NCBI GenBank assembly: GCA_965215265.1
Contig: OZ244048.1
Coordinates: forward strand, 2,848,001-2,912,000
Length of the DNA stretch: 64,000 nt
Origin: Candidatus Poribacteria bacterium
GTDB lineage: Bacteria > Poribacteria > WGA-4E > WGA-3G
Direction: 5' to 3'
Shown here: positions 60,506 to 64,000 of the stretch, piece after piece
Layout of the letters: each line of letters starts with the position of its first letter
How positions within the stretch are numbered: position 1 is the stretch's first letter
Program-made: the position numbers and the translations under genes
The notes under the pieces: model-generated
Told to the model about the DNA's origin: nothing
Seen by the model: only the letters and a program-made list of their open reading frames with translations
Database searches by the model: none

Positions 60506-61297
60506 TTGAGAATAGAGATGTTGATGCAAGAAATGGTCAAAGACGTTCCGTCGCTCCCAGGTGTCTACTTTTTTCGTGGTGCCTCAGGCAAGATACTTTA
60601 CATAGGCAAGGCGAAATGCTTGCGCAAACGGGTACGCTCGTATTTACATAAAACCAAGGGCCGGCCGTCCAAAATCAAACGATTGGTGCACTGGACGACA
60701 GACGTGCGGTATCAAGTCTGCCGTTCTGAACTAGAGGCCCTGTTCCTTGAGGCACGGTTGATAAAAAAGCATCAACCTTCCTACAACACCGCGCTGAAAC
60801 ATGGGCGGAAATCATGGTATATCCGAATAGATGTTGAAGACGATTTCCCGCTTGTCGAACAAGTTTCCGAAACTGAACCTGATGGTGCGAGATACTTCGG
60901 TCCTTTTGCTAGCAGTAGATGGACAGGAGAGGCGATTGACGTTTTCCACCGTATCTTTCCGATTCGCACATGCGCAGGCACGCTTCATCCGCACGATGAG
61001 TTTCGGCCCTGTTTTAATTACCACATCAAACGGTGTGACGCGCCATGTGCTGGGCATATAACGCGCGATGCCTATCAGGCAATGATAGCTGATGTGGTCG
61101 GATTGTTGGAGGGTAATTACACTCAAGTTTTCACGTCGCTAGTTGCAAAACGGGATAGTGCTGCTGCAGCACTTCATTTTGAGCGGGCCGCCGCACTTCA
61201 AAAACAGATTCAACGTATCCAAAAAGTGTTTACCTTTTTAGATGTACACCGAAAAGGAGGCGCAACAGATGAACAAAGAGGTCCTCGGTGGGTCTAA
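60506..61297 (+). CDS. UvrC N-terminal-like GIY-YIG nuclease with UVR domain (Cho-like)
   Basis: PGVYFF..LYIGKAKCLRKRVRSY, YFGPF, Cys cluster, FERAA; lacks the RNase H/HhH half of UvrC. Confidence 0.82.
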   Translation: MRIEMLMQEMVKDVPSLPGVYFFRGASGKILYIGKAKCLRKRVRSYLHKTKGRPSKIKRLVHWTTDVRYQVCRSELEALFLEARLIKKHQPSYNTALKHGRKSWYIRIDVEDDFPLVEQVSETEPDGARYFGPFASSRWTGEAIDVFHRIFPIRTCAGTLHPHDEFRPCFNYHIKRCDAPCAGHITRDAYQAMIADVVGLLEGNYTQVFTSLVAKRDSAAAALHFERAAALQKQIQRIQKVFTFLDVHRKGGATDEQRGPRWV

Positions 61298-61382
61298 TGG
61301 AACAACGCGGTGCCGCTAAAGGAGGCGCAACAGATGAACAAAGAGGTCCTCGGTGGGTCTAATGGAACAACGCGGTGCCGCT
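61253..61382 (+). repeat. Perfect 65-bp tandem duplication containing RBS + ATG
   Basis: 61253-61317 = 61318-61382. Confidence 0.95.
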
Positions 61383-61648
61383 GTGGAAGGCTACGCTATC
61401 CGCGCCATCCGGTATGCCCCAAATGTTATTACGAAGGCTTGCAGGAACCGGTTTCCCAAAAGAAATTGTCGCGTGCAGAATTGTTAAAAATGCAAATCTC
61501 AAAACCGATGCCCCTCGGTGATCGGGAAGAGCGGGTCCGATTCTTGGAAAAAAGGTACGGCACACAACTGCGCGGACAAGATATCCGTTATATGAAAAAC
61601 CGACAATTGTACGCCCTCTCAGAACAAGCAGGATATCGTCGAAAATAA
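61334..61648 (+). CDS. Small Zn-ribbon-like hypothetical protein
   Basis: ATG after AAGGAGG; CRCG...CPKC. Confidence 0.65.
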   Translation: MNKEVLGGSNGTTRCRCGRLRYPRHPVCPKCYYEGLQEPVSQKKLSRAELLKMQISKPMPLGDREERVRFLEKRYGTQLRGQDIRYMKNRQLYALSEQAGYRRK

Positions 61649-61667
61649 GTTGAGGTAAAAAAAACGT

Positions 61668-61696
61668 TTGACAAATTAGGTCAGATTTGCTAAAAT
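61668..61696 (+). promoter_or_regulatory. sigma70 promoter of the HMA cluster
   Basis: TTGACA-17nt-TAAAAT; CAAAT/ATTTG dyad across the spacer. Confidence 0.7.
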
Positions 61697-61769
61697 AATT
61701 GATAAACGACTTGTGATAGTTAGTTTTTTCTGTAGGTCGTTTAACAAATAACTCAAGGAGGTCAACCCG

Positions 61770-62201
61770 ATGTATATTGCGAAATTATCGCTGATCTGCC
61801 TCATCGCTTTTGCATTCATGGTAGGCTGTGGGATGATGGGCAAAAAGGCAGAAATGCCAGAAGCCGCCACAGGTTCCATGGAAGGTGAAATGATGAAATC
61901 CGAGGCCGCGGAAGCCAAGACAGAGTCCTCTGTTATGGAAGAGGAAACGCCAGAAGCCACGGAAGCTATAGCAGAGGCCGCCATTGAAGAGGTGACGTTA
62001 AACGTCACAGGCATGACGTGAGGAGCATGTACCAGTAAGGTGCAGGCTGCACTCTCTCAGATTGCCGGTGTTTCTGAAGTGGTGAGTGTTTCTTCTGATA
62101 CCAACACTGCAGTAGTGAAGGTAGAAAAAGGCAAAGTGGCGAACAACACTCTAACGGAGGCGGTTAAAGACGCGGGCTTCAGTGCCGAAGTTGCCAAATA
62201 A
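61770..62201 (+). CDS. Selenocysteine-containing HMA (CopZ/MerP-like) lipoprotein 1
   Basis: FMVGC lipobox; LNVTGMT-TGA(62019-62021)-GACTSKVQAALSQIAGV...AVKDAGFSAEVAK; hairpin GTGCA-GGC-TGCAC at 62040-62052. Confidence 0.9.
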
Positions 62202-62210
62202 ACGTTTGTA

Positions 62211-62244
62211 TGGAGGGACGGGCATCGCTCGCCCTCCATTTTTT
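62211..62244 (+). terminator. Intrinsic terminator
   Basis: tggaggg...ccctcca stem + T6 right after TAA 62201. Confidence 0.75.
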
Positions 62245-62263
62245 ATAGAGGAGATATTCTGAA

Positions 62264-62617
62264 ATGCGAGTACAACAACGCAGTACGCTATTTATCTGTT
62301 TGATCGCACTGCTCTTGGCTATCGGCTGTGCCGATCAGCAAAAGACAACAAGCGAGAAAACGGAAACTATCTCACCGTCCACAGCAGAGGCCGCCATTGA
62401 AGAAGTGACACTAAACGTCACAGGTATGACGTGAGGAGCTTGTACCAGTAAGGTGCAGGCTGCACTCTCTCAGGTTAGTGGTGTTACTGAAGTAGTGAGC
62501 GTTTCCGATGCGGAAAACAAGGCGGTAGTGAAGATAGAAAAAGGCAAAGTAACGAACGCCGATTTGACGGCGGCAGTTGAAGGTGCCGGAAATTTTAGTG
62601 CGAAAGTTTCCGAATAA
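62264..62617 (+). CDS. Selenocysteine-containing HMA lipoprotein 2 (absent from the ORF track)
   Basis: ATG after GAGGAG; LAIGC lipobox; LNVTGMT-TGA(62432-62434)-GACTSKVQAALSQVSGV...AVEGAGNFSAKVSE; same hairpin at 62453-62465. Confidence 0.9.
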
Positions 62618-62629
62618 ACGTTTGGTGGA

Positions 62630-62658
62630 AGGGCGGGCGTGGCTCGCCCTCTATTTTT
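62630..62658 (+). terminator. Intrinsic terminator
   Basis: agggcgggc/gctcgccct stem + T-run after TAA 62617. Confidence 0.72.
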
Positions 62659-62999
62659 CCGATTGCCTATTGGGTATATTCTAAAATGCGTCAACTTACT
62701 TGTAAAATCTAGTAACTTTTATAAATTATTTTCAGATACATCTACAGAACCTGCTCACAAATTGGTGCATCTCTTTTTTAATATTCTCCTTTTTGTGTAG
62801 TCGGAATTAACTCATCTCAATCCAACCTGTTGGTAATCTAATATTTTCCAATTCCTCTCCCTATTTTGACTTGGGGCAGAATGTGCCATTGCTTATTTTT
62901 TATATCTCATTAGATTTTGAATCAACGGTGGAATGTGTTGAACGGATGAAAACAGTGTTCCCGCCAAAAAAGTCGCATGCTTTTGAAATGTAAATCGAG

Positions 63000-63482
63000 A
63001 TGTTCCAACTCAGAAACTTGTTCATTGTCTTCTTGGCACTGATGCCTATTATTGGATGTTCGTCCGGAAAATCGGGGTTTGACGTAGCGTTGTCGGTTAC
63101 TGGAATGACTCGCGTAACCTCTATTTGGAATGTCATGAAAGCCTTAAAGAGCGTGGAGGCGTTGGAAATCAACGGTAATTTCTATCAGATAACCGGAGTT
63201 AATTTTCCTCTCCGTGATATGCACTATCAGGTAAAAAATAGCAGAGATGCGGATGAACCCCTGCGGATCCTGGTTATAAAAAATAAAATCGGTTGGCGTT
63301 TGCAACCTGATGAACCGAAGTACTTTTTCATTGTGGTGACAACTGAAGCTGAAGGTGTTCCCAAAGTCGCCGTCACGCAAGTGCTCATAAAACGTATCAC
63401 AAACGGGCTTGTGCCAGCCGTTGAACGCCTCGGTTTTCAAGGAAAGGTGGAAAGTGTCAAACCGTTTGATAGGATTTTTTAA
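63000..63482 (+). CDS. Lipoprotein with degenerate HMA fold (RxxS in place of UxxC)
   Basis: IIGC lipobox; LSVTGMTRVTSIWNVMKAL aligns in register with LNVTGMTUGACTSKVQAAL; AVERLGF at C-terminus. Confidence 0.7.
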   Translation: MFQLRNLFIVFLALMPIIGCSSGKSGFDVALSVTGMTRVTSIWNVMKALKSVEALEINGNFYQITGVNFPLRDMHYQVKNSRDADEPLRILVIKNKIGWRLQPDEPKYFFIVVTTEAEGVPKVAVTQVLIKRITNGLVPAVERLGFQGKVESVKPFDRIF

Positions 63483-63814
63483 ACGACTACCCGGTTAGAT
63501 TTCAATATCTGTTTTCGAAGGAGAATTTTGAAATGCAAACTCGACACCGTCAACGTTGGGGGGTCCTGAATCTAAAGACCTCCCTACCCGAGTTTTGGTA
63601 AACCGCACAAAGTCAATTTAGGACAACGTTTCCGAATAAGCAAGGTTGCCTCGCCGGCCCCGCTGCTAGATGTTCATAAGTAGATTTTAGAATGAATGAT
63701 ACATATTGATAATCTCTGCCAGTGCCTGATCTGATAAAAAAAGCGTTTTTTGGAAAAAATGGGTAACCTTCGTGAAAAATAGGCCTTTTCCCGAAAAATT
63801 ATGCTTTTTTTAAT

Positions 63815-63843
63815 TTGACAAAAACTGGTTTAGAGGGTATAAT
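63815..63843 (+). promoter_or_regulatory. sigma70 promoter
   Basis: TTGACA-17nt-TATAAT. Confidence 0.65.
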
Positions 63844-64000
63844 TATAAATAATCTGATTTCAAAAGGGCAATTTTCAGATTTTAATCGCAAATATGTCTC
63901 GCGTTGCATCTCACTTTTCCATAGAGAGTCTTGTAAGAGGTCATGAGAACAATGAATAGATACTGTCATGTTAACATTTTGATTCGTTGTGTATCATCAA

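Follow-up and report, generated by a model that had tools for sequence, protein, structure and literature searches.

The window analysed here is a 64,000-nucleotide (nt) stretch of the Candidatus Poribacteria bacterium contig OZ244048.1 (assembly GCA_965215265.1, positions 2,848,001 to 2,912,000 of the forward strand), in which two adjacent genes, called here gene A and gene B, each contain a single in-frame TGA. Reading of the sequence placed this TGA at the codon of the first Cys in the GMTCxxC metal-binding loop of an HMA domain. An earlier note made from the DNA letters had described the two genes as a tandem pair of HMA lipoproteins with selenocysteine (Sec, U) at this position. We confirmed the pair itself, and the analysis of the source genome (G000; a single 4.83-Mb contig, 95% complete) and of its relatives indicated that both TGAs are very probably selenocysteine codons. 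These bacteria are apparently sponge-associated. The features of the locus are collected in Table 1.

Table 1. Features of the tandem gene pair and its surroundings; positions are those of the window.
Feature	Position	Strand	Description
Sigma-70-like promoter upstream of gene A	61668..61696	+	TTGACA, 17 nt, TAAAAT, with TG before the -10 element; 11/12 consensus matches
Gene A	61770..62201	+	143 amino acids if the TGA is Sec; signal peptide of a lipoprotein (Cys20), linker rich in Met and Glu, HMA domain (GMT-U-GAC)
Probable Sec codon (TGA), gene A	62019..62021	+	First-Cys position of the HMA loop
SECIS-like hairpin, gene A	62039..62053	+	G-GUGCA-GGC-UGCAC-U, 17 nt after the UGA
Terminator-like GC-rich hairpin and T-run after gene A	62212..62244	+	Recognised by eye; homologous to that of gene B in the alignment
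Gene B	62264..62617	+	117 amino acids if the TGA is Sec; signal peptide of a lipoprotein (Cys22), short linker of Thr and Glu that has no Met, HMA domain (GMT-U-GAC)
Probable Sec codon (TGA), gene B	62432..62434	+	First-Cys position of the HMA loop
SECIS-like hairpin, gene B	62452..62466	+	Sequence identical to that of gene A, 17 nt after the UGA
Intrinsic-terminator-like hairpin and T-run after gene B	62630..62658	+	Terminator scan
Third lipoprotein	63000..63482	+	160 amino acids; plausible HMA-like fold, R and S at the two ligand positions, inserted beta-hairpin region

With the TGA taken as Sec, both genes read ...EEVTLNVTGMT-U-GAC-TSKVQAAL... and remain open for about 60 codons past the TGA before ending in TAA. 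Under translation table 11 the open reading frames (ORFs) 61770..62021 and 62264..62434 end in the TGA, and each is followed in the same frame by a GTG-started ORF of 53-54 amino acids, so that a TGA acting as stop would leave products of 83 amino acids (gene A) and 56 amino acids (gene B). When U was scored as C, the Pfam HMA model PF00403 (gathering score 24.8 bits) matched gene A with 41.2 bits (E 2.2e-10) over profile positions 1-61 of 62 and gene B with 36.7 bits (E 5.6e-9) over positions 1-60 of 62. The closest solved sequences to the pair were HMA domains of Cu-ATPases, CopZ and MerP. The GMxCxxC loop with two Cys is absent from A and B, in which the first ligand codon is TGA and the second is Cys; on sequence grounds we regard the TGA as a variant feature and would keep both genes in the HMA family. 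The AlphaFold2 model of gene B predicted the order beta1-alpha1-beta2-beta3-alpha2-beta4 (strands 45-53, 74-81, 86-92 and 112-115, helices 60-69 and 98-108), with a predicted local distance difference test (pLDDT) score of 85-94 in the domain and U56 in the beta1-alpha1 loop, and the linker (residues 21-39) was predicted to be disordered (pLDDT <50).

The hydrophobic N-termini of the window genes close in the lipoboxes ...AFMVG-C and ...LLAIG-C, and a signal peptide with the lipobox Cys was present in the single-domain forms examined. Across the family the lipobox, assigned by a regular expression for the general pattern, was matched in 40 of 48 frames; five of the eight non-matching frames read ...[VIA]MGC, which lies outside the expression, and the other three encode several domains behind a signal peptide that is not of the lipoprotein type. 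The linker of gene A holds 7 Met and 13 Glu+Asp in 51 residues, and that of gene B has no Met in 22. Thus, the earlier description was accurate with respect to the position of the TGA, the lipoboxes and the low-complexity linkers, one of them Met/Glu-rich, and the frames indeed run through the HMA domain to a TAA and a terminator, flagged by the scan for gene B and recognised by eye and in the alignment for gene A.

The Sec machinery, whose presence had been proposed as a check, was found in full: selA (516 bits), a SelB winged-helix domain (57 bits) in a 656-residue frame, selC in the form of a tRNA-SeC(tca) gene 49 nt downstream of the SelB winged-helix match, and selD (360 bits). The latter gene, located at G000:C1:4044330 (locus L004), has one in-frame TGA of its own and reads ...KCAG-U-ASKLAPGEL... 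around it. A global recoding of TGA (code 4 or 25) was ruled out, since TGA closes 257 of the 1265 stop-to-stop frames of at least 400 codons (20%).

The two genes are 62% identical overall. In a pairwise alignment they were nearly identical in two places, a stretch of approximately 95 nt that includes the TGA and the hairpin, and the terminators, and therefore their agreement does not amount to two independent observations; independent support comes from other genomes. A DNA search gave matches in all 41 related genomes (13 genera, four families, one order), and nearly all of the strong matches had exactly one TGA, usually within a tandem pair as in the window. In a phylum-wide sample, 138 of 151 genomes, the 138 belonging to a single order, had a match at E<=1e-12 (98/99 in family f1, 10/10 in f2, 26/26 in f3 and 3/4 in f4), and with the same query and threshold no match was obtained in the 13 genomes of the other five families of the phylum. 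The great majority among the matches listed for the 138 genomes carried TGA at the first-Cys codon. On sequence grounds the tandem pair would consist of two old paralog types: type-A linkers contain 2-10 Met (4-10 in most), with the exception of one 6-residue linker that has none, and type-B linkers in family f1 contain no Met.

To count the ligand codons, HMA domains were collected by a script from 30 fetched loci, with the requirement that the frame stay open for 45 codons or more past the motif. Among the resulting 60 domains the first ligand codon was TGA in 53 and Cys in seven, and the second ligand was Cys in all 60. In addition, multi-domain secreted proteins with 4-5 tandem HMA domains in one frame were found in three further genera, with the ligand patterns U,U,C,C,C; U,U,U,C; U,U,U,C; and U,U,U,C,C. 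The sequences of these chains point to Sec/Cys alternation between near-identical domains of one polypeptide; alternation of TGA and Cys among relatives, which the earlier note had suggested looking for, was thus found both between genes and within them. The chains (loci L019, L021, L034 and L052 of genomes G002, G007, G009 and G004) are secreted and non-lipoprotein, their N-terminal two or three domains each have Sec and a separate hairpin, and their C-terminal one to three domains have Cys and no hairpin, so that a single bacterial ORF contains as many as three Sec codons. Among the matches listed, the only full-length one without an in-frame stop was G051:C1:3337080-3337379 (query residues 8-106, E 5.9e-23), which may represent a Cys form with one domain in g3, a genus that otherwise uses Sec.

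The frame after the TGA shows no decay in the relatives, in which the TGA itself is kept. Over the post-TGA columns 36-54 of 50 distinct sequences the mean entropy of the first, second and third codon positions was about 0.74, 0.40 and 1.54 bits, respectively, and this codon periodicity implies that the downstream frame is under purifying selection at the protein level. A protein search returned 30 homologues, many of which read GMT-W-GxC, while others were truncated just past the motif and others had GMMCDAC or GMTCGAC. The W presumably reflects reading of TGA under a TGA=Trp code. The expectation that ordinary gene callers truncate or miss these genes was supported, as the public sets mostly mis-call them, with W at the TGA, fragments, or proteins without the loop. 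One hypothetical protein of 103 amino acids from Candidatus Poribacteria bacterium (P0027) reads ...EEVTLAV-KVQDAL... and lacks exactly the ten residues TGMTUGACTS, which is either a natural in-frame loss of the metal loop or an annotation artefact; another entry (P0019) has a scrambled stretch at the same place.

The second line of evidence is the RNA element downstream of the TGA, a putative selenocysteine insertion sequence (SECIS). The same 15-mer, GGTGCAGGCTGCACT, follows both TGAs of the window with a spacer of exactly 17 nt, in agreement with the 17-18 nt given previously. In an alignment of 53 U-forms (50 distinct sequences) the conserved element was R-GUGCA-GNN-UGCAC-U at nucleotides 21-35 counted from the U of the UGA, and it was present in 50 of the 50 distinct sequences. 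Base pairs were formed in 98.7% of the alignment cells, compared with 8-55% when the 3' partner was slid by 1-3 columns; four of the six pairs never vary, and one compensatory change from A-U to G-C was seen. The third-codon positions inside the hairpin (24, 27, 30 and 33) had entropies of 0, 0, 0.28 and 0 bits, as opposed to 0.63-1.98 bits at 12 third-codon positions outside it. This silence of synonymous sites is, as far as sequences can tell, a stronger argument than covariation for a constraint on the hairpin at the RNA level. Among eight distinct Cys forms, six encode V-E-A-A-L and retain only 1-3 of the five pairs, and in the two that keep V-Q-D-A-L one pair each is broken by a synonymous change (GAC; GTT). 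A different stem preferred by ViennaRNA, GUACC-AGUAA-GGUGC, was rejected: it is confined to genera g1 and g5, in which the codons for C-T-S-K are preserved, is missing from the remaining genera and also competes with the conserved hairpin.

A scan of the genome with GTGC[AG]GNN[TC]GCAC gave 20 strand-specific matches. Three of these belong to HMA frames (genes A and B and a further one at C1:3280336) and are located 21 nt past the TGA, and one, counted in the same scan, lies 17 nt after the TGA of a frame of the UGSC selenoprotein family (NF041046, 151.3 bits against a cut-off of 125). In the UGSC gene, which is located outside the window at G000:C1:570245-570772 (locus L066, 345-872), the hairpin has an 8-bp stem with the core GUGCA-GUA-UGCAC, the base of the stem is 14 nt after the UGA, and the loop is 4 nt nearer to the UGA. 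Moreover, the sequence GUGCAGUAUGCAC downstream of that UGA is read in another frame than in the HMA genes and encodes S-C-S-M-H. Since the same core occurs in another frame, it is better explained as an RNA signal than as a by-product of the KVQxAL peptide, and the comparison suggests that GUGCA-GNN-UGCAC is a SECIS core typical of the lineage.

The explanation that we favour, and hold to be likely, is that A and B are real Sec genes for exported, lipid-anchored UxxC proteins that bind soft metals, most likely Cu(I). The SelB/tRNA-Sec system would recode the single in-frame UGA of each gene as Sec, guided by the GUGCA-GNN-UGCAC hairpin, whose loop starts 23 nt after the UGA and which is embedded in the codons for K-V-Q-x-A-L. 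After export directed by the lipoprotein signal peptide, the products would be held through the lipidated Cys at a membrane that faces the periplasm, with the disordered linker parting the anchor from a canonical MerP/CopZ-like HMA domain. In the GMT-U-x-x-C loop a soft metal ion would be held between selenolate and thiolate, Se(U56) and S(C59), and the proteins would bind or buffer a soft thiophilic metal outside the cytoplasm. Compared with Cys, Sec would be expected to bind the metal more tightly and more rapidly, and the site could more easily be maintained in, or brought back to, its reduced form where the compartment is oxidising. What the analysis shows directly are the recoding signals and their conservation, the Sec machinery, the fold and the export signals; Sec insertion, the identity of the metal and the role of the pair as buffer or chaperone are what we infer here. 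Taken on its own, extracytoplasmic soft-metal binding by the pair appears probable, and Cu(I) is favoured over Hg(II) because of the conserved Met-rich acidic linker of paralog A. Such stretches, rich in Met and acidic residues, are a typical feature of periplasmic proteins that bind Cu(I)/Ag(I).

HMA proteins with Sec have been encountered before. According to the published catalogues consulted, the kinds already recorded are the P-type ATPase with UxxC, MerP and the UxxU metal-binding protein, and the P-type ATPase selenoprotein family is also given in the Olavius symbiont paper (PMC1976440). The Sec P-type ATPase resembles the pair in that the same domain family has the first Cys of GMxCxxC replaced by Sec and the second kept (UxxC). 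In the ATPase, however, the HMA module is the cytoplasmic N-terminal domain of a P1B pump, whereas here it forms a stand-alone lipoprotein or a secreted chain of 4-5 domains free of any pump; the two P-type ATPases of this genome are located elsewhere and have no in-frame stop. The model NF041115 (UxxU_metal_bind, 'metal-binding (seleno)protein', 'putative mercuric reductase', UxxU with 2 Sec) likewise describes a small stand-alone HMA-like selenoprotein and was the second or third best NCBIfam match (52.1 and 49.7 bits against a cut-off of 95). It differs in having Sec at both ligands, while all 53 U-forms in the family of the pair have Cys as the second ligand, and a lipoprotein signal and a linker are added. 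MerP (TIGR02052), the periplasmic Hg(II) binder, is similarly exported, with a single HMA domain and a two-ligand loop, and its structures matched at E of about 1e-7; it is, however, soluble and encoded in mer operons, whereas the pair is lipid-anchored, chromosomal and order-wide, and neither a mer operon nor MerT was found with it. The CopZ/Atx1-type chaperones (NF047957, NF033795 and NF033794) have the same fold and gave the best NCBIfam scores (56.5 and 52.4 bits), but they are cytoplasmic CxxC proteins without a signal peptide, in contrast to the signal peptide and lipobox of the pair, which scored under their cut-offs of 85-95. The pair also scored far below the cut-off of NF045683, the HMA-type selenoprotein model of a MerT/CopZ fusion. 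In the literature searches, which covered texts whose supplements could hold such sequences, no description of a UxxC HMA lipoprotein family was found. Thus, the domain and its chemistry are already known, and the lipid-anchored, order-wide family and the multi-Sec chains appear to be uncatalogued. The statement of the earlier note that the arrangement was not recognised overstates its novelty, as Sec HMA proteins are already in the literature and in NCBIfam.

Several observations weigh against the interpretation of A and B as Sec-containing metal binders. Neither protein reached the curated cut-off of any CopZ, MerP or UxxU model of NCBIfam. Regarding the hairpin, 8 of 500 shuffles reached the observed covariation score in a nearly invariant stem, and covariation in the classical sense is weak because the stem hardly varies. 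No GUGCA-GNN-UGCAC core is present downstream of the selD UGA, which means that the genome uses more than one SECIS form. An Rfam search of positions 61500-64000 gave no match at E<=1, and the minimum free energy z-scores of the two window segments (0.27 and -1.01; ViennaRNA) were unremarkable. The likeness to the E. coli fdhF SECIS, to which the earlier note had appealed, holds in part: the E. coli string that it cited does occur once in K-12 fdhF, 11 nt after the TGA, and both elements are hairpins 3' of the UGA with near-identical stems (GGUUGCA...UGCACC in fdhF and GGUGCA...UGCACU here) and G as the first loop nucleotide. However, in fdhF the loop is 4 nt long (GGUC), the stem contains a bulged U and the spacer measures 11 nt, whereas the loop here has 3 nt (GNN), the stem is free of bulges and the spacer is 17 nt. 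The gene neighbourhoods give no clue to the metal, as neither cop nor cus nor mer genes were revealed by the Pfam scan of 10 of them, and a search of this genome for MerT was likewise negative. No RNA sequencing run with the locus is listed, and four runs of one study contain the locus as contigs of unknown kind. Finally, the UxxC could be redox-active rather than a metal site, considering that most known prokaryotic selenoproteins are redox proteins.

Among the other explanations, the closest to ours is that A and B are true Sec-HMA lipoproteins with Hg(II) as the ligand, that is, MerP-like scavengers in the periplasm that would pass Hg on to further extracytoplasmic selenoproteins, or to some importer or reductase. 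Hg is bound very tightly by selenolates, and MerP (50.5 bits for one protein and 45.9 bits for the other) and MerTP (48.3 bits) are among the best NCBIfam matches, in addition to the structural matches to MerP mentioned above. 'Mercuric transport protein MerP' is also given by name as a selenoprotein family in a table of the GOS survey (PMC2398784). Nevertheless, the scores are well under the MerP cut-off of 92.55, neither MerT in a genome that is 95% complete nor mer genes in the 10 neighbourhoods were found, and the housekeeping, order-wide, chromosomal distribution is unlike that of mobile mer operons. As the linker of paralog A also points to Cu(I)/Ag(I), we consider Hg(II) an unlikely ligand.

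Less likely still is that the UxxC serves as a redox or chalcogen-transfer centre, the proteins being periplasmic selenol/thiol oxidoreductases or Se/S carriers built on an HMA scaffold. A selenenylsulfide would form readily in an oxidising compartment, and in published surveys most predicted prokaryotic selenoproteins are UxxC/CxxU homologues of thiol oxidoreductases. Yet in every solved relative that we found the HMA fold with GMxCxxC is a metal-binding module, the Sec HMA-type proteins listed in the catalogues are all annotated as metal transport or binding proteins, and the chains mix U and C domains that are otherwise near-identical, as the repeated metal-binding domains of Cu-ATPases do. 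The idea that the TGAs are ordinary stops of pseudogenes or split genes, with the downstream HMA part untranslated or made from the GTG at 62040 or 62453, can practically be discarded: TGA is a common stop in this genome and the 53-54-residue ORFs do start with a GTG just past each TGA, but this GTG belongs to the hairpin and has no ribosome-binding site, either half alone would be an incomplete HMA domain, TGA stands at the first-Cys codon in 53 of the 60 domains of the 30 loci with the frame intact on both sides and is kept by the great majority among the matches listed for 138 genomes, the genome has all of the Sec machinery, and the hairpin is common to a known selenoprotein family.

Outside the window, at G000:C1:3279019-3280509 (locus L044, 19-1509), there is a 496-residue frame with an N-terminal CxxCH haem motif and WD40-like repeats. 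It ends in a C-terminal HMA domain with SGMT-U-GAC and has the hairpin GUGCAGGAUGCAC 17 nt after the TGA; counterparts of 527-590 amino acids with one TGA occur in most relatives. The pair could be imagined as one arm of an order-wide extracytoplasmic selenol network for soft metals, in which the cytochrome-c/WD40-Sec-HMA protein and, in sister genera, the secreted HMA chains would be among the other arms, Se would be the preferred periplasmic ligand of Cu(I)/Hg(II) and the gradient from U to C along the chains would act as a directional metal relay. We regard this picture as speculative and rather doubtful.

The third lipoprotein of the window had been described as having RxxS in the register of the metal ligands together with an insertion. 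The RxxS was confirmed: the ORF has a lipobox, and its TGMT-R-VT-S aligns with TGMT-U-GA-C, R falling on U and S on the second Cys. In the six aligned members of its family ...SVTGMT(R/N)xTS... is invariant, with R or N, and S, at the ligand positions in all six. The Pfam HMA model gave no match to the ORF at E<=0.1, and hhalign against the HMA alignment gave a probability of 88% over 50 columns, among which the signal peptide is included. The predicted structure (pLDDT 79.7) consists of beta-alpha-beta-beta, two extra strands and beta-alpha-beta. A Foldseek search of the PDB with this model returned nothing at E<=0.001. With VIA-align, seven of the top eight chains were HMA domains aligned over nearly the whole length (Z 8.2-7.3, root-mean-square deviation 1.5-2.5, 66-77 residues), a Z of about 8 being common according to the tool; the look-alikes in the ESM Atlas (best score 0.89) belong to unnamed clusters and were uninformative. 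The third lipoprotein is plausibly an HMA-like fold that has no ligands and carries an insertion. A paralog of 125 amino acids with the motif SIKGMNRATS is located at G000:C1:2927001-2927375, 15 kb downstream of the window copy, and was matched at E 1e-13 over residues 8-73.

The role that the earlier note gave to this gene, a non-binding partner within the cluster, was not upheld. The gene was found in only 6 of the 41 relatives, it is a neighbour of the pair only in G000 and in G001 of the same genus, and in G018 and G009 it is on other contigs. A conserved partnership was rejected on this distribution, and because the distribution is sporadic and separate, the 'non-binding partner' is without comparative support; judged by sequence comparison, the third lipoprotein should not be counted as a part of the Sec-HMA system. 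Thus, from the proposed extracytoplasmic, lipid-anchored selenol cluster for metal capture the Sec HMA lipoproteins remain, and the third gene is unsupported and conserved metal-resistance neighbours were not found.

The neighbourhoods were sampled as 80 flanking ORFs from 10 loci with Pfam. In family f1 a GIY-YIG gene and a gene for a small Cys-rich protein lie upstream of the pair throughout, and housekeeping genes lie downstream; the lineage-specific neighbours comprised one CDF transporter (L055) and one multihaem cytochrome (L061). As only the GIY-YIG gene and the small protein recur, and this in family f1, we rejected the neighbourhood as a clue to function. The sigma-70-like promoter upstream of gene A is a consensus match only, and the number of promoter-like sites in the region (4, with a shuffle mean of 3.2) was not above expectation. 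The terminator-like hairpin after gene A was not flagged by the terminator scan. In addition, positions 61253-61382 form a perfect tandem duplication of 65 bp (two copies, 100% identical) that reaches from the last part of the GIY-YIG/UvrC-like ORF (60506..61297) into the first part of the small Cys-rich ORF (61310..61648). As a result, the small gene has its ribosome-binding site and start region twice, and the GIY-YIG frame is lengthened to 263 amino acids, compared with 246-252 in most relatives; the duplication could be either a recent event or an assembly artefact.

The finding is a solid result for annotation and for the selenoproteome rather than a new kind of system. Annotation under-counts the selenoproteome of these genomes, since in the protein sets seen the genes are given W at the TGA, cut in two or left without the loop, and the small invariant hairpin common to the HMA and UGSC genes offers a simple, lineage-specific search key for further selenoprotein genes. 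A Sec ligand in an exported, lipid-anchored domain of the chaperone type would make these bacteria a natural system for the question of selenium versus sulfur in metal trafficking in an oxidising compartment, and the natural U and C versions of almost one domain, sometimes within one polypeptide, would allow the two to be compared directly.

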